Of a stretch of 64,000 nt of DNA, positions 3,401 to 63,413 are shown in pieces. The DNA is from Isurus oxyrinchus. Taxonomy: Eukaryota. Each line of letters starts with the position of its first letter. Position 1 is the first letter of the stretch. The notes beneath the pieces are model-generated. The model was not told the DNA's origin and searched no databases. It saw nothing but the letters and a program-made list of their open reading frames with translations. The stretch is taken from positions 41,664,001-41,728,000 of the forward strand of contig JANJGN010000017.1 in the NCBI GenBank assembly GCA_026770705.1. The letters are read 5' to 3'. A program made the translations under genes and the position numbers.

Positions 3401-3811
3401 TGGAACTAAGGAGGCTGAAGGGTGACTTGATTGAGGTATACAAGATTATGAGGGGCCTAGATAGAGTAGACAGGGATGCCCTGTTTCTCCTAGCAGAAAG
3501 TTCAATTACCAGGGGGCACAGATTTAAGGTGATTGGTTGAAGGATTAGAGGGAACATGAGGAAAAATTTCTTCACCCAGAGGGTGGTAGGTGTTTGGAAT
3601 TCGCTGCCTGGTTTGGTGGTAGAGGCAGGAACCCTCAACTCACTTAAAAGGTACCTGGATCTGCACCTAAAGTGCTGTAGCTTGCAAGGCTACGGACTGG
3701 GTGCTGGAAGCTGGGAGTAAAATGGGCAGCTAGTTTTTTTCTTTTTTGGCCGGTACAGACGCAATGGGCTGAATAGCCTCTTTCTGTGCAGTAACTTTTC
3801 TATAGTTCTAT
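428..3811 (+). mobile_element. CR1-type LINE, 5'-truncated and decayed (ORF1 esterase remnant, APE endonuclease, RT, 3' tail)
   Basis: ORF1-like HIGTNNI...DEVL...VVISGLLP. Endonuclease motifs YLNARS, ETWL, RQDR..KGGGVALL, VGDF.YP. RT motifs KSPGPDG, GVPQ.SVL, FADD. The 3' end is the CR1-type ...gaatagcctctttctgtgcagtaacttttctatagttctat. Many stops and frameshifts. Confidence 0.92.
475..546 (-). mobile_element. Short PLE-derived fragment inserted in CR1 ORF1
   Basis: Contains cctggaaaaactcagcaggtctggcagcatctgcggagag, shared with the hammerhead-bearing family at 11058, 23473 and 63102. Flanked by tgaggtcctgct (463-474) and tgaagtcctgct (547-558), a 12-bp TSD with 1 mismatch. Confidence 0.75.
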
Positions 3812-5779: not shown

Positions 5780-7176
5780 TTGAGTGCACCTCCCCTTGAA
5801 CCCCTACTGGGGTTATGTTTTAGTTGTCCATCTGAGCTGACCTGCATCTCCGCCCACCACTGATTGCACTCCCATGCAACACCCCTGCCTGTCCAACACG
5901 AGGCTTCGCTCACTTTCGATTTTGACAGCCTGGTTCTCGTTAACTTTCTGGTCAGCACCTCCATCCTTTCTTCTCCTTCAGTCAACCACTTCCTTTCCCC
6001 CATCACTGTTGGGCCCCCTGGCATCACCCCACCTTCCCACCATCACCTATCAACCTGGACCCTTTTCGTTCCAGGGTGTTCAGGTGAACATGCACGTTTC
6101 CTACCTTCATAAGAATCCCATCCTGTCCACATTGACCTCCCTGCCCTCCTCCCTCCCACCTCCAGAGTCCAAATCTGTCTCCAAGTCTCCACCAACCGTC
6201 CTCTTCTTCATTCCTACCGCTACTGTCACACCCTCACCCTCCCACTTTTCCGGCTCACTCCGCCCCCTCTTATGCTCACCATTCCCTCCTACCATGCCCA
6301 ACCTCAGTTGACACCACAGACCTCTCCCATGCATGTTCACCTGGACATCCCCCCAACTTACTCCTTCCTCCACCCTTACTCCCTTCTCCACCCTTACTCC
6401 ATCCTTCTCAGAGACTCCTTCCCTCCTTCCTCCCCCCTGAACTCCTTCCCCCCTCCGAGCTTCTTCCCTTATACCTTCCTTCCCCCCTTACACCTACCTC
6501 CCCACTTGCCGTGTTCTCCCCATTTACACCCTCCTCCCCCGCTGTACCTCGCCCCCTCCCTCCCAACCTCGCCCCCCCGACACCTTCATTATCCCACAAC
6601 CTCAGCACCCCCCTCCCCCAGTACACCTCCCTCTCTCATTCACAGCTGCGCCTTCCTCTCCCCCCACCTCTCTGATCATCCGTAGCAGCCCATGGTCAAG
6701 ACTGTGATGTTCTGAAGTAGAGCTGAGACATCAGTGGAGATCTCCCACCTTCCGTGAGCTGCTTAGCAGTGGAGCCGTGCCCATGAGAACCCATCCAGCA
6801 TGTGATGTACGTGTTCCTCCAGGGACTGGTTGCTGTGGGGCTCCAGCATCTTCTGCTCCTCGGATTTCCTTGATGTGCGCAAAGTCCTAACAGTAAGTCC
6901 TGACTTCTGCACATCACACTTGTCGAGGCATGTTCTGGGCTGGCATATTTTCCTGCTGGCGCAATGGTAAATTTGGCATGGGGAGACGATTCCGGTCAGG
7001 CCTTACTTTGCATCCCATTAGCAGGCATTGAAGTTCCGCCATGGTGGACACCATCGGATGTTCCAGCTGTGCTTTCACGTCGGCATGAAACTGATTTTTG
7101 GCCACCTTGTTATATTATCCCGTCCTCTTCGCCCGCTATGGCACCCGATGCCAACGGGGCCAGAAAATTCCGGCCT
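5780..7176. mobile_element. Non-autonomous Harbinger-like element with a long polypyrimidine tract; homologous to 50327-51970 in opposite orientation
   Basis: 6740-6960 is the reverse complement homologue of ~50590-50790, and 5950-6380 matches ~51100-51900. Right end ...ccagaaaattccggcc resembles the GGCnGGAwTTT TIR-like termini seen elsewhere in the window. Confidence 0.55.
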
Positions 7177-7344
7177 TTGTCAGTGGGGTCGGATGCTGGT
7201 AGCTGATTTTGGGAAACACAATGCATATATACAGAGGAACTGAACAGTGGCAACTCACAGGTGGACTTGGATTGATGTGGGATATTTGAAGTCCTGCTGA
7301 TTTCAAGCATGGACAGCATGCACATGGGATTCAGTAACTGTGGT

Positions 7345-8195
7345 GTCAGGAAAATATAATAATTTTCATAATGTTCTTGGAATTTATTGTAAGTATAGGA
7401 AGTGTGTGTGATTGTGTGTGACTTAACTGAATTAAAGGCAGCTGGTCTGAAGGCTTTGATGCATCAGAAGACAAGCTAGGAATGAAATGTTAACGAGGTA
7501 AACATGGTTAAAGTTGTAGAATATGAGGCATAAAAGGAAAATTTGCATTTTTAGATAGACCTGAGTAGCGAATTTCAAAGAGGTGGTAAGGTGTTACACC
7601 TAGCCAACAGAGACTAAGTCAAACAGTATTCCCAAAGCTTACTGATAAAATTGGCACTATGAAATATTTTTATGACTAGAAAAGTAGAGTTGAAAATACA
7701 TATTGAAACAATGGGATTTATGTTAAAAAGGAAGACATATATATAAAAGAGATGAGGTTATGTGTAAGGAAAGAAGGAATTCTAAGATCTAACACATGTG
7801 AAAAGCCTCCAGCCTCTGTTGCTGTCTACATGAATGGAAGTGAAGAAAACTCAATTTGAATTCGACTGTTGAGGGTATCATTTACTTTGGTTGGGTCTTT
7901 TAAAATCTATTTGTTTTACTGTTGCCTTAAAGGAGGTGTAGCTGGGAGTTCATTAACTAAGGGAGCTAGGAGTTATCATAGTAGTAATTTGTAAACCTAT
8001 ATAGGTGCTTAAAATCATTTTTTTAAGATTTACTAAAGGCTTAATTTAGTTTTGTAAGAATTCTTTAAGATTCAGTGGTCTTATTAATACTGAATTCAAG
8101 GCATGCAACTAGAAATAAATACAAATTGTAAAATAGTTGTGGCAGTTGTTTCAAGTTTCCCTCAGGGATTTGAACAGCTCAGCATTTATCATCCA
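7345..8195 (+). mobile_element. Possible solo LTR
   Basis: Starts tgtcagg..., with a composition and TATA/AATAAA-like motifs resembling LTRs. No TSD or partner LTR found. Confidence 0.3.
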
Positions 8196-11057: not shown

Positions 11058-11295
11058 AGGTACAGGCAAAATATTTCAGATGCTGGAAATCTGAAACAAA
11101 AACACAAAATACTGGAAAAACTCAGCAGGTCTGGCAACATCTGTGGAGAGAAAGACAGAGTTAATGTTTCAAGTCCGTATGACCCTTCTTCATAGCTCTG
11201 AGGAAGAGTCATACAGACTCAAAACGTTAACTCTGCCTTTCTCTCCACAGATGCTGTCAGACTGGCTGAGTTTTTACAGCATTTTTTGTTTTTTC
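11058..11295. mobile_element. Fold-back (palindromic) PLE-derived element with degenerate hammerhead motifs
   Basis: Inverted arms centred on AGCT (11194-11197) with no spacer. The left arm carries an extra ~35-nt tail. TSD tccaaagggcacaa (11044-11057) / tccaaatggcacaa (11296-11309). Right-arm motif CTGAGGA-A-GAGTC-atcaa-type loop (ataca)-GACTC-AAAAC-GTTAAC. Confidence 0.8.
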
Positions 11296-12920
11296 TCCAA
11301 ATGGCACAATCTTGCTCTTTGTTTCAAAAGTTCTATATTTGATGCTTCACAGCATCACATGGCACAACTCTGTGGTAGCCTGCTATGTGAAGCAGAGGTG
11401 TCTCTGTTGACATGGCCAGGAGTAGATCCCAGGGTAGCGATAGGCATAGCAGAATGTCTCAGGCCATTGTTTCTCAGGAATTCTTTCCCTTATTTCAGTT
11501 ATGCAGTGTATTCAGAACCATAAAGGAACAATCAACATTCCCTCTTCATGGTACCATGTCAAAGTCATCAGTACGCAGGCATAATGCCGAAAGGTAATCG
11601 TGGAAAGATAAACAAAAATCACAAAAATATAGAGGCCTTTACAATAACTCCAAAGAAAACATGAACCGAAGTGCAGCCAAGGCACATAGAGGATGAAAAA
11701 CTAAGAGAGGTTTGTATTGTCTTCTTTTGCAAGGTCTTCTTGTGTGGGCATTGTCCCTAACATTCCAGTGTGTCCAATTTTTAAGGACAAGCCTGATGCT
11801 GAGGTTTGGTCTTGCCCAAAGTTGTGAAATCGGGGCACTAAAATATTGAAAAAGGATTTGTATATTTGAGTGAAGGTGCAGGCAGCAGTCAATTTCGCTT
11901 TTTACCCCAAATCATGGGGAGTAAAACAAAGACTGAATGCGATGTCCTGCTGTTAGATTGAGGCCTCACATTCTGAGCTTGAGGCCTGAAACAGTTAAGA
12001 TCTTGCATTTTTTTACTATTTTGTACATCAGCAGCACTTGCTTTAACAATGTTTTGAAATGTAAATTGACTGAATTATGAGCAGGTACAATTGAACAAGT
12101 GAGTTTCTTTAGTTATAAAACAGCAGCATGATAATATTGATTGCAAATACTTCCTTTTGCCTGCTTTTAGCTTTTGAGAGTACAAGAAAACGTTCAATGC
12201 TACTACACAGCAACACCTTACCAAAAGATTACATGGTGCAGGGAGCCCTGATGTTAGGGGACATATCAGGGAGGTTTTGCTGCAGGAACTCCAGTTATTT
12301 TCTATTTGTTTACCATGGCTCTCAGAAATGGTGCCATTCAGGTCACCCAGGGAAGTGCTGGAGATGTAGAATGTTTAGAAACACAAAACCATGAAAATGC
12401 AGAGAGGAACATACAACCTTTTAACACAAATCAGACATTGCTGGATTCACTAGTATTTTGGAATTGTATTGCTTAACAAATGGAATCAACATTTTTCAAC
12501 TGAAGAAAATCTGTGATAAGATCTTTATTGTGAAACTTTATTTTTTTTACTTGTCCTCATTTAGGCAGTTGTTTTACCTCTTAAGCTATCAGTTTAAAAG
12601 TTAATATATGCCCCCTATAATGTTATGTATATTTTCCTCATTATTAAAGCCATGCAGCTCCCTCAATGATTTCCCTCAAAGAATAATGTCTAGTTCTCCA
12701 TCAATAATGGGGCATCCATTTACTGCTTCTCACTACGCTATACAGTTTGATTATTGTTTTTTGAAGATTGGTGCAATGCCTTTGATTTTACTGTTTAAAA
12801 ATTTGTTTTTTCACCAGGCCCTTGCATTGGAAAGTAGTTCACAGTTATGTGGTAATATTTTTAAAAGGTATTTATCTTCTTTTTGAGTCCATTTTTACAC
12901 AGCTTCTCGAATGAGTCAGG

Positions 12921-13025: not shown

Positions 13026-13664
13026 AAATGAGAAGGATGCCAGGCATGTGTGTGTGCTGAGTGAAGCCGTGGATGGGATGATGAGGTGATCTGCAGAGGA
13101 GATGAGGCCAGGTGGAGATGTGAGGGTGTATGTGAGAGAGCAAGTGGTGATGTCCCTTGAGCTGGCAGTGACTGAGATGCCAATGAATGTGTGATGGGCT
13201 TGTGAGTGGGTGAGTTGAGAGTGATGAGATGGTTGACTTACCTTGCTGGATGAGATCATTCATCCTATTTCTGCACTGGATGGCCGATCTCTTGTCTGCA
13301 GTGTTGGCACTGACCACCGCAGCCACCGCTTCCCAAGCCCAAGGAGACTAATGGGCCTCCTGAGACCAGAGCAGAGGTAGAGAGTGGTGGTCATCCACAT
13401 TGACCAAAAGATATTCAAGGGATAAGTCACTGTAGTAATTGTAGCTTTCAGGGATGTAGTGATTGTAGCTTTAAGATTTATTGTGTTGTATAGTATCACG
13501 TGACAGTGTGAATGAATCAGCTCTAAGCGTGGGGCATCTTGGAGCAGCAGTTCTTCTTCTAGTTGTGGAGCTCGATGGAAGCATGTAACTGCTGCTGCAA
13601 CCTGTAAATAATTATCGATATTTCTAATGAGAAACCTGTCTTGAAAATCAAGTCCATATCAAAC

Positions 13665-13683
13665 TGGCGATGAGGATGGGATT
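13665..13683 (+). promoter_or_regulatory. Primer-binding site complementary to the tRNA-Ser(GCU) 3' end
   Basis: tggcgatgaggatgggatt versus the expected TGGCGACGAGGATGGGATT (one CpG-type transition), starting after a 3-nt gap following the 5' LTR. Confidence 0.85.
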
Positions 13684-14511
13684 GGGTCCAGCGTTGTCCC
13701 TCACCCAGCAACTGTGAGTATCTTGTTTAAACAGAACAAAAAGAAAATATATTCACCAGGTATGCTGAAGAGTTCAAACAGAAGAAACAGAAGTGATGTT
13801 GTTTTAAGTTAAAAAAATACAGGCTCCAATCCAAATGGCAGAGAAATCTCTCAGACCACCCCCAACAATAAAAAAAAACAGGACCTGCAGAGGTAAAAAG
13901 AAAAAGAAGAGAATCTGTACTTAGATTATAAAATAGGCAGCAGCCCCGTGGGGATGAGGTGATCTGCAGAGGAGGCGTAGTAGGCTAGAGAAGCTGCAAG
14001 AAAAGAAAAATGTAAAAACAACCTGTAGTGCACAGTAAAAAAAAAACTGCAAAAGTTAAAAATAAAAAAATGCTTGCTGCAGAGTTGATAGTTGCAAGTT
14101 AGAAAAGGGCAATCAGAGCAGAAAGCAGTGCTGCAGTTTTAAATTTTTTTAAAAAGTGGCCCCGATCGGCCCTTGAGGCTGTACGGTCTCCCGAAGTGCG
14201 GAATGTCCAACATCAAAAGAACCTGCGAAGTTATTTAAAAAAATTTGCAGGATTGCCCAGAAAAGGGAGAAGAAATTGCTGCTGTGTTTTTTTTTGAACA
14301 GGAATAAAGTTTTTTCAAAGTTAAAAAGAAAGCAGCCACGTTCGCCAGTGAGCCCGCCAAAACACAAAAAGTGCAGGAAACTCAAAAGCAGCACAGAAAA
14401 GCCAACAGCTACAGAGGCAGTCCAAGTAAAAAAAAAAGGTCACTGCTCTTAAAGTGGACATGCATTTAAAATGGTAAATGCAAGATAAATGACTCTGGAC
14501 AGAAAATTAGA

Positions 14512-14780
14512 AGAGACCCCAGAGAGAGGGCAATCCTGAAGAAAGCAACAAGAAACCCGAGAGAGAGCGACTCTGTCAAGGGCAATAGGAGGCCCCAGAG
14601 GAAGAGCAACTCTGCTGAAGGGAATAAGAAACCCCAAAGGGTGCGTAACTCTCAATACCAGTCTATTGGCAACAAGAGACCCCAGAGAGAGGGCAACTTT
14701 GCCGAAGGGTACAAGAGAACCCAGAGAGACGGCAACTCCACCAAGGGCAACAAGAGACCAGGAGAGGGAGGGCAACAAGA
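14512..14780 (+). repeat. ~39-bp tandem repeat (about 6-7 degenerate units) encoding KRPQREGNxxxGN-like 13-mers
   Basis: Recurrent aagagaccccagagagagggcaac units. The ORF at 14641 reads GNKRPQREGNFAEGYKRTQRDGNSTKGNKRPGEG. Confidence 0.75.
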
Positions 14781-15989
14781 AAATAAACAGTTGAAAGGAC
14801 AGTTGATTGTCCTTCAAGATCAAATGCAAAAGGAATATGTCATCATTCAGCAACATGAAGAAATGAACACTGTCTTAAACACTAGAATGAAGCACAGCAG
14901 AAGAAACTCGAAGAGGGCTCAGGGAAAGCCCTGGTAATTGGAGAGGGCTCACTGGGAGACCTGGGAATCATGTATAGCTGGATACAACCTGGAGACAGGA
15001 GTTCAGAGAAACTCCAAGGCAGTGCCAGCTCAGTGAAGCTAGCTATCTGACAAAGAGCTAAAGAATCAGCTAAATGAAGCAAAAAAGGCTTTGAAAGGTA
15101 GTGTCATATAACTTTCAAAGATGCAAGTGGTTAGCTGGTGTAATAGTTTCTGTGACCGGACCCTTGTCATACCACACAGACGTGAAGGGCCAGATCACCT
15201 GAAAACACACGGATCATTTGAGAAGAAGGGAGATACCCCAACAAACTGATATTTGAGCTGTAAGCATTGTAGAATCCATGGTCCCTGTTGAAATTGTACA
15301 ACCAAGGATAGACATACCAGACATCTCTGTCCGAGTAGATAACACTGTGCCTAAAGAGGTATCTGATGTTGCTGCTGTTCCAGATAATGTGGATCCTGTA
15401 AGAGATTTGAGAGTCGTGGAGCTATGACATTCCATCTGGATCAGGAAACCACCTGAGAGACTGAACTTATAATTCCATGACCCGTATATATTTGTAATGT
15501 CATGAAGGTACATGTTCTTGTAAATACAAACTGTACAAAAAATTTAAAGAGGAAGGAATGTAGTAATCATAGCTTTAAGGAATGTAGTGACTGTAGCTTT
15601 AAGACTTATTGTGAGTATAGTATCACATGACAGTGTGAACAAATCAGCTCAAAGCATGGGGTTCCTTAGAGCGGCAGTTCTTCTTCTGGTTGTGGAGCTT
15701 GATGGAAGCATGTAACTGCTGCTGCAGCCTGTAAATAAAATTCAATGTTTTGAATGAGTAACCTGTCTCAAAATTCAAGTCTGTAACAGTCACTGAATTA
15801 GAGGGTGGCACTCTTCTTGGCTTTTGGGGCCATGTCTTCACTGGAGCAGACTGGAAGTGGTGAGATAATGGCGTGACAGGCAAATCAGAGGCTACCCTCC
15901 AGCGAGATGATGTGTTTCCCATGACTGCATATTTTATGAGTTGGGAAGAGGATGATACTGTGCGAAAAGCCGCCATTGCAGCCAGCAGG

Positions 15990-16912
15990 TAAAACATCAT
16001 TTTTCATGCCCACTACCGCACCTAGTGCAATTCTGGGATGATTCTGATTTTGAACCTGCTTATATCGTTGCTCTGCTGCAGTCTGAGGCTGCCGCATGGG
16101 TATCATTAGCCTCTGCGAGTAGCCCTTGTCCCCGAGGACCCAACCGTGAAGCTTCTGTGGATCCTGGAAGACTTCAGGGATCTGTGACTGACTGAGGAGG
16201 TAGGAGTCGTGCACACTCCCTGGAAACCATGTGCACATCTGCAGAATGCGTTTCTGGTAGTCGTACACCAGCTGCACATTCAGCAAATGGAAGCCCTTGT
16301 AGTTGATGTAGTTCACCTGTACTTTGCATGTTGTGACAGAGATCTGAGCGCCACAAGAATGCAGTCAATCACACCCTGCACCTTTGGGAAACCCAAGATC
16401 TGGGCGAATCCAAATGCCCTTGCATCCTGGCTGTCCTGGTCCCGGGTGAAATGGACAAAGCTGTGTGCCCTCGCAAAGATAGCATCCATGACCTCATGGA
16501 TGCATTTGTGGGTGGAGGCTTGTGGGATCCCACTGAGGTCACCTGTGGAGCCCCAAAAGGAGCCACTGGCATAGAAATTGAGCACCGCAGTCACTATCAT
16601 AGCCATTGGCAGAGGATGCCCTCCATATCCCCATGGCACCAAATCCTGCAGTAGCTGGCAGATGTGACCGACTAGCTCCCTAGACATGCGCAGTTTTTGA
16701 TGACACTGGTTCTTGGTCATCTGCAGGAATGAAATGCAGTGCCTATAGACCCTGAGTGTCACTAGGCGCCGACCAGCAATGGCTCACTGTGGCTCTTGGA
16801 TGGTGTATGCGGGAGCCCCAGCCGTCCCTTCTTCCTGAGGTTGCTGCTCCTGTCTCTGCACAGCCAGGAGCCTCAGTTGTTGTCTCCTCCACCGTCTTTG
16901 TGCTCTGTAGGC
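15990..16912 (-). pseudogene. Harbinger DDE transposase remnant
   Basis: ORFs 16313..16762 and 15885..16316 carry HARBI1-like DDE_Tnp_4 motifs. Frameshifted and C-terminally truncated. The probable N-terminus (MEPGELAV) lies beyond the CR1 at ~19772-19797. Confidence 0.85.
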
Positions 16913-34328: not shown

Positions 34329-37300
34329 TGGGATAAGGTAGTGGTGAGGGTAGGTGGGGGGAGCTAGTAATGTATGCTTATACCATCATATTTAATGAGA
34401 TTGTAGGGTGAGGGGAAAGTTGGAAGTGAGGAAAAGAATTCGGTAGGACCATACCATTATCTTCTATGATCTCAGCCCTCCCACTGGCCATGGCCTTGAT
34501 GGCAGCTGCTCCAAGTATGATGACCATTCTTTCCTCCATTGGGTTGAGGAGATGTGGCTGTGTCAATCTTCTACTGGTTAACTGTTGCTGCCTGGTCCTG
34601 CAGGAAATTGGGGAGTGTTAGTGAGTGTAATGCGGTGTGTATGGGTGATGTGACTGTCATGGTGAATAGCTATTAGTGTTTGTAAACTGGGAGATATGAG
34701 TGCAGCTTGCAGTCATGCTAAGTGTGAGAGAGTGAGCTGAAGCTATGAAATTGAGGAATAAGTTGTGCTTAATAGAGAATGTTCATGGGTGAGTGAAGAG
34801 GATGTAGTGAATTGAGCTGAGTGTGAGGTTGATGGTTCAGTTGTAAGGATATTGTTTTGTTTTGGGGTTGAGATGGGGTTCTTTGGGATGTGCCGATCTT
34901 CCCTAAGTAAGCTATTCAAGACTGTAGTTTGTTAAGACCATTATTACTTGTTTACAGCTCTATGTACATCTTGGAACTCTGCAGGCAGTTGGACTTCTCC
35001 ACTCGCCAAAGCTCTGTTACTTGGACATGTGTCATTACATCATCGTTACATCAGCATCACATGCTTTTGATGTTAACCCTTTACTCTACATTTCCCCCCA
35101 CATCTTCATCCTAACTATATACATCTGCTTAACATCTCCCCTAAAGTCTCAGACTTCACAGGGTTAGTCTCTGAGGTGCCTTGCCCAATCTCCCTGATCT
35201 TGCTCTGATCTCTTTCTGAGGTCGAGGACATTTTGCTCTCTCTCTTTGTTCAATATGAGTGACTTTCGCCTGGGTGGTTGTAGAGCTTTGTCTTGTTTCT
35301 TGATCTTCATCTCCGTCTGGATCTGAATAGTAAGCCCAAGTTTCTGTCAACTTTCTTTCCAACGATATTAAGGCACTGTGGGTTCTCCTCATATTTTCCT
35401 GGTCCATCTCAATCCTGTAAGATCTTAGTTGTGGAGCTCTTTCTATTATTATGCCTTCTTTTTACTAGCCTTGTGGCCATACTCTCTCCCCAGGCTGTCG
35501 CACTGTTAAGTCTTGTACTCTGTGCCTGAGGTTGAAGTTACAAACTTATTTGTGTCTCTGCTCCTCTTCACAGTTTTTAACTCTCTTATGGTCATTGGAG
35601 TTGATATTTGGTTCTAGTTTCTGTTGCAGAGCTGAAAGTTGTGTTCTCAGGTTATCTTCCCATTAACAGCTGTGAGGGTGAGAACCCATTTTGCAGTGGT
35701 GAGATTCAGTAACTAAGAAGGGCTAAGTTGAGATCTTCATTTTTCTTCCAGTCTTTGACTTTAATGATTTCAGCTTCCCCATTTGATTGAGGATATTGAG
35801 GTGAGACACTCATGTGAATGAACCCATATTCCTTTGCAAAGTTGTGGAATAATTCATTAACAAATTGTGGACCATGTTCTGACACTACAATGTCCAGGAT
35901 GCCACATGTTGCATAGGTTCTCTTCAGTGAATGAATGACTGCTTCTGCCATGATGCTGTGCAATCTGTTTGCTTCAATCCATCTGGAGCAGTAATCAATG
36001 ACAAAAAGGAATACCTAGCCTTTAAAATTAAATGAATCCATTCCCAGGTGCTCCCATGGCCTTGATTGAAAAGTGGAGTGAGACAGTGGTTCTTTTTGCT
36101 CTTGGCTGTTCACTGCACATGTAAGGCAATTCAAAATTAGTTCTTCAATAGAGTGAGTAATGCCTGGCCACCAGCCTGATTGCTTGGCGCTTACTCCACA
36201 ATTTGCTATCCCTAAGTGACCTTGATGAATTTTTTGGAGAATATCAAGCCTAAGTCTTTTCAGATTGACTGTTTTGTCATTAAAAACTAGTAGATCATCA
36301 ATGATTGTGTCATAATTATAGTTTTGGAAAATGTTGGACTGTAGCTTTAAGAATAATCCTGTGTTGTAAGATCACATGATTTATGTAAACCAATTATTAG
36401 CAGCACTGGGAACCTCCACTAGAAAGTTCTTCTTTAGTTATGGAGTTTGATGTACACATGAGGTTGCTGCTGCTGTCTTGTAAATAAAATTAAATGTTTC
36501 CACCTAGAAAAGTTGTCTGAAGATCAACTCTACAAAAAACTGGCGATGAGGGTAAATCAGATTCGGTGCTGTACCTCACCCAGTGATTGTGGGTGTCTAC
36601 GTTCGTTAAAAATAAAAGATATACTCATCCGAAATGCCACAGTTTGGTGGAATTGATCCATTTGAGCCAGCTACAGATGCTTGGTCTCAATATATAGAAC
36701 GTCTTGCGTTCTTCTTTCAAGCAAACTAAATCGCAAGGGAGGAAAAGAAGAGAGCGATTCTCCTGAGTATTTGTGGGAGCAAAACCTACAGTTTAATTCG
36801 AAGCTTGTCGGCTCCCTTTGCCCCAGATTCGAAGACTTTCAATGAATTAGTAGACCTCATTAAGGGACATTTTCAACTTAAGTCCTCAGTAACAATGCAG
36901 AGTTTCAGGTTCAATTCACAGAATAGAGCTCTGGGGGAGACAATTGTTGCCTACATGGCGAAATTAAAACAACTAATGGAATATTATGATTTTGGGAAAC
37001 CCTGAATGACATGCTCAGAGATAGTTTAGTATGTGGCGTGCAGGAAGACACTATTTAGTAAAGATTATTGGCTGAAGTGAATCTTGATTTTAAGAAAGCG
37101 TTATAGCACTTTCGAACAAAATAGTGCTGGCAATGGAAAGCGGTGTAAGGGATTCACAAGCAATTCAAGGGGCGCAAAATGGCGCCATTCTCCTCATCGC
37201 GTGGGAACAGTCAGCCAAAAGTGACACAAAAAGCTGGGACTCCACTGCGAAGCAGGAAACAGCCCCAGCTAACCGAAAAATGAGAGGAAACAGCTTAGCA

Positions 37301-37892
37301 ACTAAGTCGAAAAATAACTTTCAGCGATATGGAAGCAATCATTCTTCCAGCAACTGGCAATTTTAAAAAGTATAATGTTATTTTGACACATAATGAGACA
37401 GTGTAAAGTGAGATTTAAACAGGCCTCCAAACCACAAACAAAGTCCAATGAAGCCTATAGTGTAGAAGAGTCAGAAATAACCAATTCTGACATTTATTCA
37501 TTATTCAACATGAAAGTTGGGCAATCAGAGCCAATATTTGTTACAGTGCAAGTGAATGATAAACCATTAAAAATGGAAGTAGACATTGGGTGTTTCTACC
37601 ACTGTAAAGGGAGAACATACCTTCAGATATTTAAATAAAAGTGATCAACAGCTAAATTTGGAACAAACATCTACCAAGTTGAAAATGTACACAGGTGAAG
37701 GATTCCAAATAAAAGGTATCACCAGAGCAACTATTCATTATAGACTCCAGTTGGCTCAGCTACCTGAGGGTCAAGATTCATTGAGTGAAATTAACCTTTG
37801 TTGGCCAGTGAGATTTCAAAAGGAAGCTGGAAGAAAAAGGAACAAAGCAAGTACTTCAGAAAGAGCCTGGAGAGTCCAAGGACCGCAACAGG

Positions 37893-38486
37893 ATGAAAAA
37901 GGAGTATGTAAACATTCAGCAACCTGAAGAAATGAAGACTGTCTTAAACAATGAGATGGAAGAACAGCAGAAGGAACCCAATGAGACTCTGCTGAATGAC
38001 ATAATTCAAGATGAAGCAAGTGAGCTTCACAAAGGAAAGGAAAACCTGTGGAAAGACCTTCACACACTACAAGGATCCCTCTGGTCAAAGTTTGTGCCTC
38101 TAAAAAATTATGAAGAGAAACAGGAAGAATTTAATAGCTCTCTGAACAACCTGGAGAACCAGTTGGCAGAGAAGATGCAACAATGTTCAAATTTCCAGGG
38201 GAAAGCCAATAGATATAAGGAGACAGAAGAGCTGAAGAATCAGCTAAATGAAGCTAAAGAGACTTTGAAAGCAGAAGTTGAAGAACTTTCCATAATGCGA
38301 GCAGATAATGAAGATAATGAAATCATGGGTAGCTCTACTACTGAACTAATTCAAGTTGAGATTGCATCTGAGAGAAGTACGGCTGACAATGAAATCAAAA
38401 AGAAGGCTGAGAATAAATTCTGTGGCAAAAAGAAGAAGACGAGATGTGCAATCAAGATGATATTTCATTATCAGATGCATGGGTAG
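37893..38486 (+). pseudogene. Coiled-coil ORF resembling the UACA/RAI14/ANKRD24-family C-terminal region, carried inside the LTR element
   Basis: 197-aa E/K/Q/N-rich heptad ORF (KEYVNIQQ.EEMK.VL...QDE..ELH...LHTLQ...KFVPLKNYEE...F...L..QLAE). A homologous segment lies at ~14780-15100. The family assignment is from memory of UACA, not from a search. Confidence 0.6.
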
Positions 38487-39787
38487 TAGTTCCTACACAA
38501 GGAAGGGAACCACTTTTAGTAGAGCTACACAGTGCCCATCCAGGGATCTCCTGAATGAAGAAGATAGTGTGGAGTTATCTTTAGTGGCCAGGGATGGACG
38601 GCGATATTGAAAATGTGGTAAAACAATGTGTGCAGTGTCAACAGCTACAAAAGTTGCCGGCAGCAGCCACATTACACCCATGAGAGTGGCCTGGTAGACC
38701 CTGGGTGCAATTGCACATTGATTACGTAGGTTATTTCCTTGGAACCATGTTTTTATTGATTATAGATGCTCATTCAAAGTGGTTAGACATTTATGAGGTA
38801 AAGTCACCAATGTCAGGTGCTACTATAGAAAAATTACGCCAGAGCTTCACCATCCATGGATTGCCAGAGGTAATCATCTCAGTTAATGGTACTGTAGTTA
38901 CGAGCGCTAAGTTCCAACGATTTATCAGCCTCAACAGTGTTAACCACGTGAAGACTGCACCCTACCATCAGTCATCAAACGGCCTGGCGGAAAGGGCAGT
39001 ACAAACTTTCAAGGTGGGAATGAAAAAGTTAACAGGTGATTCGTTGGAGACCAAACTTGCTCATTTTCTATTTCACTAGAGAATGACCCCCCACACACTA
39101 CGACAGGAGCAACACCTACAGAATTACTGAAGAGGTGCTGTCTTCACACAAGACTAAGCCTAATACTTCCCAATTTGAAGGGGAAGGCGGAGAAAGCCAA
39201 GGGAACCAAAAGAAACTCATGATTTGCATAGTCGTGAGCGACAATTTACTGTCAGAGAAGCAGTACATGTAAAGGATTCGGTGGAGGACCGAAGTGGTTA
39301 CCAGGTAAAGTGAGTTCTGTGACCAGACCATTGTCACACCACGTGGAAGTGGAGGGTCGGATCACCCATAAGCATGTTGATCATTTAAGAAAAAGAGAGA
39401 TGCCCCAACAAAATGATGTTCCACCTGTAACTGTTGCTGAGTCAGTGGTTCCTGTTGAGATTGCACAGCCAGGGATGGACATGCCCGATGTCTCTGTCAG
39501 AGTAGTGCCTAATGAGGAACCCGATGTGAATGCGATTTCAGAGAATGTGTTTCTTACAAAATAATATGAAGTCATGGAGCTACGACTTTCCACACGGGTC
39601 AGGAAACCACCTGAAAGACTGAACTTGTAATTTCATGGCCTGTGTAAATATTGTAATGGCATGAGATAAATATCCTTGTAGATACAAAATGTACAGAAAA
39701 GTTAAAGGCGGAGGAATGTGGAAATTATAGTGTTGGGAAATGTTGGACTGTAGCTTTAAGAATAATCCTGTATTGTAAGATCACATA

Positions 39788-40465
39788 GGCCAGAATTATT
39801 AGCTCATTGGGCGGGCACATGCCCAACCCGAACGACACGCGATGACATTGGTCGAGCATCCCAACATCATCATGCAATCTTGCAATATTTCAGTCAGCGG
39901 GCACACATGAGAGTTGTCAGTGCGCCCGTTGACAATTAACAGGCCTATTAAGGCCATTAAATTCCCAATTGAATTCAATTTTTCGCTGCCCATCCAACCT
40001 TATGATTGGCGGCCAGGTGTAAAGGCCAAGCGGCCTTTGGATTTTTTAGGAAACCTCATTCACAGGTGGAATGAGGTCTCCAGCAGCAAATAAAAATTAA
40101 ATAAAAATTTAAACATTTCATTGATAACATGTCCAAGCTCATGTGACTGTGTCACATGAGGGGACATGTTTTTTAACAATTTAAAATCTTTATTTTTAAT
40201 TCTTAAACTCTCTGACTCCCGGAGGCAGTTCTGTGCCTCAGGGAGCTTTTCCTGCACACACCCACACACATGCACAAAGTTCCCTGCTTGCCCTCCTCCC
40301 TCATCCCATATAGGCAGTGCTGCAGCACACATTTCATGCTGGGTAGGCATTAATTGGCCTGCCAGTGTGAAATCATGGTCGAACCCCGATCATGGGCAGC
40401 AATTGGCTTCCCAACCGCTCCTGTCCAATCCCGCCAAGCTGCCCAATGAGGGCAAAATCTTGGTC
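39788..40465. mobile_element. MITE (Harbinger-like) inserted in the 3' LTR
   Basis: Terminal inverted repeats ggccagaattattagctcattgggc / gcccaatgagggcaaaatcttggtc. Absent from the 5' LTR. A related copy lies in opposite orientation at ~53177-54210. Confidence 0.8.
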
Positions 40466-43104
40466 ATGATCTGTGCAACCCAATGGTTAGCAGCGCGATG
40501 AACGTCTACAAGAGAGTTCTTCTTTAGTTATGGAGTTTGATGCACACGTGTAGTTGCTGCTGCTGTCTTGTAAATAAAGTTAAATGTTTCCATTAAGAAA
40601 AGTTGTCTGAAGATCAACTCTGTAACAGATTGTAAGGTGTTTTCTCTGTTTGAAGTATTGCCCTAGTACTGGATTGTTAGGATTATAGTCTGGCCATCCT
40701 TCCAGACAGCATTCCTTTATCTGGACATATTCGTCATCTTCCTGTTTGTTTATTTTACCTCCTGCAACTTCTTTGCAGTAGCCAGTAGTTATGTGGTAGT
40801 GAGTGATGGATACACTTCCACCTCCTTGATGAAATTCAAATCCTCTATTTTGATTCCTTTTAACTGGTATTCTTGATGGTGTACCTGCTGTCACCTGGCA
40901 CTTCCCTTGAATGTACTCAGTTACTGAATTATGCTCATTAGCCTCAGCCTGAAGCGTTGAATCTTCGCAATTTCCTTCAAGTCCAGTACAGTGACTAATA
41001 ACTTATGGTCGGTTTCAATTTTAAACCGCAATTCCATTGAACTGAGAACTCCTCGCACCCAATGTTGCTCCCAACACTTCCTTTTCAATTGTAGCAGATG
41101 TTTTTTGTGTGTCTGTGAGTGATCTTGAGGCTTAATAAACTGGTCTACATTTACCATCTCTTTGTTCTTGGAATAAAACTGTACCCAGACCTATAGATGA
41201 TGCATTTGCTGCAACAATGGTCAACAGTTCTGGATTGTAGTGTGCTGAAATTTCAGGAGAAATAAGATTTTTGATCTTCTCAAAAGCATTTTGCTGGTCC
41301 ACATTCCAGCACCACTGTTGAGCATGTCTCAACAGCTATCTCAGCAGCTTGTTGGTTTCTGGCAAATTTAGTACTTGCCTACTTGGTTGACCATTCCTAG
41401 GAATATTTGTAGCTCTGTGATGTTCCTGAGTTGGGGAAACTCTCTAATCACTTTTGTTTTCTAATGGTCAGCTGTTATTCCTGAGGCTTGCAAGACATGC
41501 CCCAAAAATTTAATCATAGGTTTTGAAAATTTGCATTTTTCATTCAATATCAAATTTTCATCCTATAGAACCTTTAGGACTGCTCTCACTCTAAGGCCAT
41601 GCTGTTCCCTTGTGGAGCCATATGTTGTCCATATGCCATGTTACTCCTTCCATGCCTTCTAGGGTCTGAGACATTGTTCTCTGGAATATTTCTGAAGCAG
41701 ACACAATCCCAAATGGTAATCTGTTAAAGCAATAACAACCAAATGGCATTATAAATATGTTCTGCATCTCTATTCTTTGTCCAGAGCGACTGCCAAAAGC
41801 CACTGTTTGTGTTTAATTTGGTGAATAGGGTACTTTTAGCTAGTTTGTCAAGACTCTTATCCATTGATGCCATTGGGTGGATCCCACATTCCACTGAGCT
41901 GTTTAGTTGAGACAAGTCCATGCAGATTCTAATTGAGCCATTTGGCTTTGAGACTGTGACCATTCAAGAAAACCACTTTGTAGGTATGGTTACTGGAGAG
42001 ATAATTCCCTGCGGCAGCATGTACTCAATTTCACCCTTGACTTTGTCGAAGAGTGGGTGAGGGACCTTCCTTGGTAGGAAGAAGCAAATTAGTTTAGCAT
42101 CACCTCATAGGGTAAAATGTTATTTGGTCTTCAGTTTTTCCAAGCCTATAAATAATCTTGGAAATTGATTCCTGAATGTGTTTCTCTACTGCTCATTGGC
42201 AACTTCATCAACTTTATAGATCAGCTTCAATTGTAAGCATGCCTCCCTGCTTAAGCACAATGATTCTTGGTTCTGTATGAGGTAAAGATCTTCAATGATT
42301 TCTCTGCCTTTGTATTTTAATTCTTCCAGGTGTTGTCCTATGACTTTCATTATAGTCCCGCTGGCACCTTGTAACTGGATAGATGATGGCTGTTACATGA
42401 TATGCTTAAACCGCTTTACTTCGTCAGATAAGAATGAAACACCTGCCCCTCTGTCTACTTTTTAAACTCTGTGGGGTGTCTATCTGCTTCAAGCTTAATG
42501 CTCTAATATTTATTTTCTATTTCATATACTTCTCCTAGGGAAGTTAATTCCTTTTTCTGTGGTTCTTCGTCGTCTTGTATGTGGCTTGGCCTTAAAATTT
42601 TTTGGTTGTTTTTGCGGGCTCCCTGTATTTTAGATTGGCAGAAAAGTTTAAAATGTCCTAGCTCTCCACAGTTGTGGCACTCTGCTCCCCTGCGGGGCAT
42701 TCTCCTCGCTTGTGCAGGTTTTTCCCACCACACCGAGAGCATTTCATGATGGTGGTTAGCATGCATTTCTGCGTTTTCACGGGCTTCTGTTTTGGAGTGC
42801 TTTCCATCTTCTGGCCTGCACAATGAATGGCCTCACTCATTCATTTCCAGGGGACTTCACATTTCCAATGAACAAACGCTCTCTTTTGCTTTCTGAGCTC
42901 AGTTTGCCTCACGATTTGTACTGCCTTAATTAAAGTTAGATCTCCTCTCGGTTTGTAAGAGATCTTATAGAGATTGTTTAGGACCCAACTACTATACAAT
43001 CACAAATCAATTCATCTTTCATTTTCCGTAGTTGCAATTTTCTGCCATCTTGTATAGATCGTTGATCGCCGAATCCACGCTTTCACCTAATCTTAGTTTT
43101 TACT

Positions 43105-62182: not shown

Positions 62183-63101
62183 ACCTCTGAATTATTCAAG
62201 AAAGGCAGGAGAGAGAATATGGGAAATACAAGCCAGTGAGCCTGACATCAGCCATCAGTAACATTGGAATCTGTTATTAAGGAAGTGACAGCAGGGCACT
62301 TAGAAAATCATAATATGATTAAGACAGAGTCAGCATGGTTTTACGAAAGGGAAATTGTGTTTAAAAGTTTTGTTATTTTTTTGAGGATGTAACTAGCAGG
62401 CTAGATAAAGGGACCCTGGATGTAGCATATTTGGATTTTCAAAAGGCCTTTGATGTAGTGCCACCAAAAGGTTGTTGCTCAAGCTAAAGGCTCATGGAGT
62501 TGGGATAATGCAGTAAAATCAATAAGAAATTGGTTAAAGGACAGAAAACAGAGAGTAGAAATAAACATATCATTTTCAGTGGGCTGCTGCAAGGATACGT
62601 GCTCGGGCCTCAGCTATTTATAATTTATATTAGTGACTCAGGTGAAGGGATCAGGTGAAATCCATCTAACTTTGCTGACTACACAAAGCTAGGTAGGTGA
62701 CTAAGCTATGAGGAGGATACAAAGAGGCTGCAAAGGGACATAGACAAGCTAAGTGAGTGGTTAATAACATAAGAACATAAGAAATAGGAACAGGAGTAGA
62801 GCATTCAGCCCCTCGAGCCTGCTCCGCCATTCAATAAGAGCATAGCTGATCTTCTTGTGTTTCAATTTCCACATTCCCATCTAACCATTATAACCTTTGA
62901 TTCCCTTGCCTAACAAGAATCTATCTACCTCTACCTTAAAAATATTCAATGACCCCGCCTCCACCACCTTCTGAGACAGAGAATTCTAAAGTAGCACAAC
63001 CCTCTGAGAGACAAATGTTCTCCCCATCTCTGTCCTAAAAGGGTGACCCTTAATTTTAAAATAGTGCCCCCAAGTTCTGGACTCACCCACAAGAGGACAC
63101 A

Positions 63102-63413
63102 AAACAAAAACAGAATTACCTGGAAAAACTCAGCAGGTCTGGCAGCATCGGCGGAGAAGAAAAGAGTTGACGTTTCGAGTCTCCATGACCCTTCGACAGA
63201 ACTTGATTTCGAGTCCAGGAAAGAGTTGAAATATAACCAGCTTATATTTCAACTCTTTCCTGGACTCGAAATCAAGTTCTGTCGAAGGGTCATGGAGACT
63301 CGAAACGTCAACTCTTTTCTTCTCCGCCGATGCTGCCAGACCTGCTGAGTTTTTCCAGGTAATTCTGTTTTTTGTTTTGGATTTCCAGCATCCGCAGTTT
63401 TCTTTGTTTTCAA
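63102..63413. mobile_element. Young, near-perfect palindromic PLE-derived element
   Basis: Arms 63106-63236 and 63242-63372 are exact reverse complements around a 5-nt spacer (ccagc), giving near-identical ORF translations on both strands. The right arm has a ~35-nt tail. Exact 14-bp TSD cacaagaggacaca (63088-63101 / 63414-63427). Confidence 0.92.
63275..63313 (+). ncRNA. Minimal hammerhead-like motif with variant core (mirror copy on the - strand at ~63165-63203)
   Basis: AGTT-CTGTCGA-A-GGGTC-atgga-GACTC-GAAA-CG-TC-AACT: stem I AGTT/AACT, 5-bp stem II, palindromic ACGT stem III and a GUC cleavage triplet. A6 of CUGANGA is replaced by U. Confidence 0.65.

Follow-up and report, generated by a model that had tools for sequence, protein, structure and literature searches.

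The locus considered here lies in a window of 64,000 nucleotides from the shark Isurus oxyrinchus and raises the question of how an open frame resembling a host coiled-coil protein came to stand in the place of reverse transcriptase (RT) and RNase H in a Gypsy retrotransposon, and whether it serves the element there. Our analysis indicates with good confidence that the element represents an RT-less shark Gypsy family (family A) in which pol beyond the protease was replaced by host UACA DNA, likely relayed from another LTR family by template switching, and in which this cargo is most likely a passenger. The whole element spans 36308–40627, with a GATTG target duplication on each side, and was resolved into the following features.

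36303–36307, plus strand: 5' target-site duplication GATTG, identical to the 5-mer at 40628–40632
36308–36537, plus strand: 5' LTR, beginning with TG; agrees with the first and second parts of the split 3' LTR at 64/70 and 138/163 positions
36541–36553, plus strand: primer-binding site, complement of the tRNA-Ser(GCT) 3' end, from comparison of the LTR-adjoining sequence with genomic tRNA-Ser(GCT)
36634–37420, plus strand: gag remnant, broken, with a decayed zinc-knuckle region; Pfam PNMA match at E 8.5e-4, below the cut-off
37520–37800, plus strand: aspartyl protease remnant, broken by private deletions; aligns with partner copies
37801–37892, plus strand: diverged protease-to-RT linker running into the cargo, the marker of family A; from alignment to the RT-bearing partner
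37893–38239, plus strand: UACA piece 1, host L029 6695–7047, about residues 909–1026 of UACA protein P0001 (268/353 nt, E 1e-68)
38231–38239, plus strand: 9-nt microhomology GCTGAAGAA at the joint of a 450-nt in-frame deletion, found at host 7039–7047 and 7489–7497
38231–38351, plus strand: UACA piece 2, with a private 9-nt tandem duplication; host L029 7489–7600, in part by alignment extension
38352–38434, plus strand: start of segment X1, non-UACA and common to family B (62–73% identical to family B copies)
38435–38440, plus strand: GAAGAC microhomology, switch to the integrase of the RT-bearing partner, from alignments
38441–39630, plus strand: integrase (H2C2, core and C-terminal tail), broken; Pfam Integrase_H2C2 at 46.8 bits and rve, 84–88% identical to partner copies
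39697–39716, plus strand: polypurine tract, directly before the 3' LTR
39717–40627 (39717–39786 and 40465–40627), plus strand: 3' LTR, ending with CA, split by a 678-bp insertion
40628–40632, plus strand: 3' target-site duplication GATTG, 5 bp, matching 36303–36307

The marks of a Gypsy element, namely paired TG...CA LTRs, target-site duplication, tRNA primer site and polypurine tract, are all present, and the domain order protease-RT-RNase H-integrase is found in partner copies with the same LTR, gag and integrase, the window element itself keeping protease before integrase. Its gag is 78–83% identical to that of sister and partner copies, and the same protease region in one partner copy gave a Pfam gag-asp_proteas match of 37.8 bits. 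Neither RT nor RNase H gave a Pfam match in any of the three plus-strand frames of the window element (stops read as X), in agreement with an earlier note on this DNA that had seen neither domain between protease and integrase. That note had also described gag and integrase as broken; stops and frameshifts interrupt both, and the protease as well. The window element is not an autonomous Gypsy, its own RT and RNase H being missing. Families A and B are putatively Mag-like.

Several other repeats occur in the window. The 678-bp dispersed repeat at 39787–40464 that interrupts the 3' LTR has ends of short inverted similarity, may be accompanied by a 3-bp CAT duplication, and by these features resembles a non-autonomous DNA transposon. 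The window element was inserted into an older, minus-strand Gypsy element (35700–36302 and 40633–43000), whose integrase H2C2 region (44.2 bits) continues across the insertion with rve downstream. A broken DDE_Tnp_4 transposase (52.7 bits), presumably Harbinger-like, lies at 15885–16783 on the minus strand, and a short dispersed repeat forms head-to-head inverted pairs at 63101–63377 and 11089–11302; the arms of the former pair are 136 nt long and 99% complementary, and the same repeat is frequent in host introns.

The open frame at 37812–38486 (plus strand) comprises 224 codons from stop to stop, or 197 residues counted from the ATG at 37893. Described earlier as one of the longest of the window, it ranks second among the 93 ORFs of at least 100 residues, and the openness of this copy is not special, as 185 or more of 206 codons are also open in 5/39 sister copies. 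A protein search with the ORF passed 4 of 1170 candidates, all of them shark UACA (P0001–P0004; E 6e-25 to 5e-19), at 51–58% protein identity, and the captured pieces show 75–76% DNA identity. The host UACA gene was located on G000:C25 at about 4.88 Mb, where one exon of 908 codons codes for residues 408–1315 and is 98.8% identical to P0001. Piece 1 matches this exon (L029) at 76%, and window positions 38231–38313 match host 7489–7571 at 75% (62/83 nt, E 5e-10), both pieces falling within the single exon. The same nine letters stand at both host ends of the gap, indicating that the 450 nt were lost at a microhomology. Judged from these alignments, the insert at 37893 to about 38350 is shark host UACA DNA.

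The UACA-like coiled coil that the earlier note had proposed is therefore matched by four proteins and by host-exon DNA, and the 76% identity over 353 nt goes beyond the low-complexity coiled-coil similarity it had named as the contrary outcome. Among the host relatives it had proposed, UACA was recovered, but RAI14, ANKRD24 and ANKRD35 were absent from the matches returned by the search of 1170 candidates. Its reading of the ORF as a host fragment holds for the UACA part; the ORF as a whole is a mosaic of pol linker, UACA piece 1, UACA piece 2, about 85 nt of non-UACA sequence and a short stretch read from integrase DNA, though in a different frame. When searched against Pfam and PDB, the ORF returned weak coiled-coil matches only, and an ESM Atlas search gave nothing at 0.9 or above. 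Unlike shark UACA, the cargo has no ankyrin repeats, covers about 150 of about 1400 residues, carries an internal deletion and is fused to element sequence; with the ankyrin part missing and neutral variation within the family, it does not have the character of a functional UACA paralogue.

A DNA search of the genome with the insert returned 4701 first-look candidates, of which the best 39 non-self copies are 83–86% identical over about 660 nt. A typical family A copy measures about 3.05 kb, with the order LTR-gag-protease-cargo-integrase tail-LTR. LTR pairs are 83–91% identical within a copy (13 A copies scored), protease and UACA cargo share one frame in 28/38 copies, and the cargo frame stops just beyond the basic tail. 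A 27-mer in the protease-to-cargo linker (37801–37892) had 717 matches at ≤2 mismatches, and its reversed control had 0. This 27-mer was recovered in 33/39 A copies, while 20 partner, 37 B-type and 11 C loci differ from it by 7 mismatches or more, so that family A comprises no fewer than 717 copies. The earlier proposal of an element that multiplied although RT-less is thus upheld by at least 717 copies. The layout proposed with it, RT and RNase H replaced and integrase kept, is correct for the window copy but proves to be a minority form, since the integrase core is missing in 39/39 of the closest A copies.

The 20 closest integrase-core relatives fetched are 78–91% like the window element in LTR, gag and integrase. 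None of the 20 carries the UACA insert, and Pfam matches to RT and/or RNase H take its place in 3/3 RT-bearing relatives tested. Absence from these relatives indicates that the UACA segment is not a normal part of this Gypsy clade, the other contrary outcome that had been named for a capture. Fixed changes between A and this partner amount to 4/146 codons in gag, 12/135 in the knuckle-protease region and 0/106 in the integrase tail, and so few differences make the partner the likely helper. In contrast to these few backbone changes, A and B differ by about 47 changes over 120 codons of cargo, which indicates that the cargo lineage goes back further than the split of the backbones. The linker, compared between A and partner, shows an identity gradient that is indicative only, resting on 44 pairs.

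A search with the UACA part that is missing from A gave 4007 first-look genome candidates, and the 17 stretches fetched define family B, a distinct LTR family whose elements measure about 4.2 kb and match A at the DNA level in the cargo only. Its primer site fits tRNA-Leu, whereas A uses tRNA-Ser. The B cargo runs in the order UACA (host 6050–7600, about 74–86% to host), X1 and TPR, and the TPR piece (PF25481, 62.9 bits) joins host exons on G000:C16 without the introns, up to 8.5 kb, which indicates capture from RNA. A search for a host source of X1 gave no match among 1117 candidates; X1 is absent from 30 kb around host UACA, matches no exon credibly within 80 kb around TPR, yielded nothing that stood out as host-like among the 150 of 1444 genome candidates scored, and by profile search matched only five hypothetical proteins of Scyliorhinus torazame. 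In copies L039, L041 and L042 a further coiled-coil-like segment follows gag and precedes UACA, some 150 nt ahead of host position 6050, and in three B copies (L038, L046 and L047) the UACA end and X1 start precede the rest of the UACA piece, a common rearrangement. Copy L157 holds host UACA 7635–7686 at 94% in its positions 3463–3514, beyond the usual captured range, which may represent a later, separate host pick-up.

Two further LTR families carry cargo, C the UACA cassette and D TPR. A member of the former is present in the window.

13466–15788, plus strand: second LTR element, family C, with UACA pieces at 14768–14915 and about 15050–15130 and the A-type joint

The UACA piece of this element is 79% identical to host exon 6639–6787, the A-type second piece is also present, and the family search gave 4040 first-look candidates. 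Nine of the 11 C relatives fetched run on into RNase H and integrase sequence from a relative that is about 70% similar to the partner of A. Tandem repeats of about 39 nt lie upstream of the UACA piece in family C (13466–15788; L166–L176), where no clear gag match was obtained, and a non-assigned stretch separates its two UACA pieces. Family D (12 stretches fetched, L067–L078), putatively Gmr1-like, combines a SCAN-type gag (34.7 bits) with TPR after the protease and has no UACA. Its TPR is spliced, starts from the first coding exon in most copies and is in frame after the protease in 2/2 scorable copies; the TPR search gave 1646 first-look genome candidates. Beyond TPR, a further coiled-coil-like stretch follows in D.

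Whether the cargo was of any use to these elements was approached through its substitutions. Distinct A variants contain 79 synonymous changes of 374 against 88.8 expected, and B behaves likewise, indicating that copies have decayed neutrally since insertion. The comparison of dN/dS among copies recommended earlier thus gave a clear answer within the family and mixed results on the A stem, where the tests, with p from 0.006 to 0.18, give no more than a weak hint that the cargo frame was under selection before amplification. Differences between A and B have an N/S of 1.59 against 4.31 in singletons (p 0.006), in the coding frame only and not in the other two. On the A stem fixed stops number 2 and 4 in the two alternative frames but none in the coding frame, third positions take 22/46 changes (p 0.03), and indels are in frame in 2/2 shared against 3/25 rare cases (p 0.03). 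These signals would fit a cargo that was a selected accessory, a Gag-protease-coiled-coil fusion that aided spread, for example by filling the place of Pol in the particle or by oligomerising. The shared protease-UACA frame in A, the single UACA-to-X1 frame in 20/25 B copies and the in-frame host TPR coiled coil of the SCAN-gag family D point in the same direction. However, base-matched permutation on the A stem set the 14 synonymous of 46 changes against an expectation of 11.0 (p 0.18) and the absence of stops against an expected 1.6 (p 0.19), and the net NG86 omega of the stem, 0.37 (CI 0.20–0.67), overlaps the within-family value of 0.53 (CI 0.40–0.70). Direct repeats of 7–9 nt in the UACA exon are in frame by chance in 70–81% of cases, which makes in-frame deletions weak proof, the gag-to-UACA frame in B is split 3/6/2, subfamilies retain very different cargo parts, and the finding was itself chosen for its open frame. 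We regard a selected accessory as doubtful and the cargo as most likely a passenger.

Two further candidate signals were rejected: the in-frame B deletions (126, 147, 210, 282 and 450 nt), since 7–9 nt repeats are mostly in frame anyway, and a drop in N/S between variants in four or more copies and singletons, since frame +1 shows the same drop. A wider proposal appears likewise doubtful, namely that at least three unrelated shark Gypsy backbones repeatedly swapped Pol for host coiled coils (UACA, TPR and an unknown X) in frame with Gag-protease, and that these were selected and traded between families as a mobile cassette for more than 100 million years.

The integrase of the window copy calls for a separate explanation. 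Both parents contain the word GAAGAC, at which the copy crosses to the integrase of the partner. An assembly error can be dismissed for this joint, since a contig of read run X2 covers 38294–38505 with 5 differences. Contigs of two runs guessed to be RNA match the element at 90% and can be assigned neither to the window copy nor to RNA. Cargo with full integrase could have been the ancestral A layout from which the common form later lost the integrase core, and a second copy with the same joint (L188, 81% identical to the window copy) indicates that the form is old. Against this, L188 is the only other of 40 scored matches to span the joint, the joint falls on microhomology with the partner, and common A copies and family C retain about 8 more cargo-tail codons than the window form. 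An ancestral layout seems to us improbable, and the longer cargo tail in common A and C leads us to read the window copy as a recombinant.

The source of the cargo in A can be traced through its joints. The A insert passes the end of host homology (position 7600) into the X1 of family B, with piece 2 and X1 together 62–73% identical to B copies, and the exact A joint (7047-to-7489, 450 nt) recurs in 8/20 further B copies picked by X1 similarity. A tree built from the host, 13 A copies and 27 B copies places A as one clade (support 100) nested among B; the stem of A measures 0.12, and tips are about 0.06 long in A and about 0.10 in B. Nodes inside B are weakly supported and the copies with the 450-nt deletion are not one clade; the nearest rows to A are L149, whose own, distinct deletion measures 564 nt, and L146 (support 87 and 78). 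As the deletion joint and the downstream segment belong to a different LTR family, the UACA piece of A was likely relayed from that family rather than taken straight from the host. Direct capture by A from the host, independent of B, is highly improbable: the mean distance of A is slightly smaller to the host (0.248) than to B copies (0.258–0.263) and a 9-nt repeat could produce the same deletion twice, but that gap is expected of B copies that have decayed since insertion, A nests within B, and A has non-UACA X1 at the mid-exon break of B while the host locus is without X1 (30 kb searched), so that the shared UACA|X1 joint largely refutes it.

The direct capture of host mRNA by the window element that the earlier note had envisaged accordingly gives way to family B as the nearer source, on the evidence of the joint and the X1 tail. 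An origin from spliced host mRNA stands for the TPR cargo of B and D; the UACA pieces lie within one exon, and for this reason the RNA route is documented for TPR and extended to UACA by inference. Apparent microsimilarity at the switch points amounts to 9 nt at the internal joint and 6–7 nt at the integrase joint, with none clear from linker to UACA. The lack of clear microhomology at this last joint, in the alignment to the RT-bearing partner, counts against the proposed relay.

The capture is likely to be old. Host and Carcharodon depart at 24 sites from a residue common to Heterodontus, Scyliorhinus and Stegostoma, and at 23 of these most B copies keep that older residue; at 5 sites uniting the host with Scyliorhinus, most B copies side with that group at 4. 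This site comparison used 16 B copies, and the protein tree was built by FastTree with 5 short A rows left out. Predicted protein P0005 of Scyliorhinus torazame spans the UACA|X1 joint. On the shark tree, with its orders Lamniformes and Carcharhiniformes, these residues and the joint in P0005 suggest that capture likely predates the split of the two, horizontal transfer being a possible alternative.

These results fit a history in five steps. An ancestral tRNA-Leu-primed family B would have copied host mRNAs during reverse transcription, as its spliced TPR testifies and as we suppose for UACA, and so come to carry UACA, X1 and TPR in one frame. Subfamilies of B then dropped internal stretches, a loss visible in their copies, one of them being the 450 nt at the 9-nt repeat. 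A and C would stem from the entry of a B piece of about 540 nt, placed in frame behind the protease linker, into a Gypsy lineage primed by tRNA-Ser, a transfer suggested by the shared joint, the shared tail and the tree. Family A, with its count of at least 717 copies, would have been mobilised in trans by the RT and integrase of the partner with near-identical gag, protease and LTRs. Another switch at GAAGAC may finally have brought the partner's integrase into the window copy.

Related cases are the HERV-K capture of FAM8A1, mentioned in PMC5131818, and the acutely transforming retroviruses with their gag-onc fusions. There, host sequence stands in place of replication genes and a helper supplies the enzymes, as the RT-bearing partner would in family A; the shark element differs in being Gypsy and not a retrovirus, without env and with no sign of a selected host-derived function. 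LTR-mediated retroposition in animals has been described by Tan et al. (2016, PMC5131818), who, in the part available, report template switching and young retrocopies, 15 in fly and 5 in zebrafish. Those retrocopies hold a partial host mRNA in place of part of the internal ORFs, with microsimilarity at the switches (PMC5131818); in the shark elements, too, host-derived sequence replaces part of the internal ORFs with both LTRs kept, and further non-autonomous cycles and multi-gene chimeras are shared. Unlike them, the shark cargo is old, reaches at least 717 copies in one family and likely crossed between LTR families with different primer tRNAs. Maize Bs1, as far as the available parts of PMC13317346 and PMC5131818 describe it, is an LTR element with transduced segments of several unlinked host genes; the shark elements likewise carry several host-gene segments, but whereas Bs1 is a plant element with enzyme cargo, they carry coiled-coil scaffold mRNA (UACA, TPR) in four vertebrate element families.

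The mechanism is thus already known, being LTR-mediated capture as in maize Bs1. What sets the shark case apart is how far the cargo has multiplied, how old it is, its likely relay between families that differ in primer tRNA, and the recurrence of coiled coils as cargo. The literature search found no account of cargo relay or mass amplification in sharks; Repbase, Dfam, subscription journals and supplements lay outside it and may hold these families with no mention of their cargo. For annotation, hundreds to thousands of UACA- or TPR-like matches in sharks represent retrotransposon cargo and not gene-family expansions, as the first-look candidates (4007 for UACA and 1646 for TPR) indicate, and five such predicted Scyliorhinus torazame proteins are already in databases. 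More broadly, host fragments captured by LTR elements can be highly amplified and, it appears, passed between families with different primer tRNAs, in steps that are readable from shared joints, and the many natural copies in these shark families make it possible to test whether selection ever favours captured host sequence because it benefits the element.
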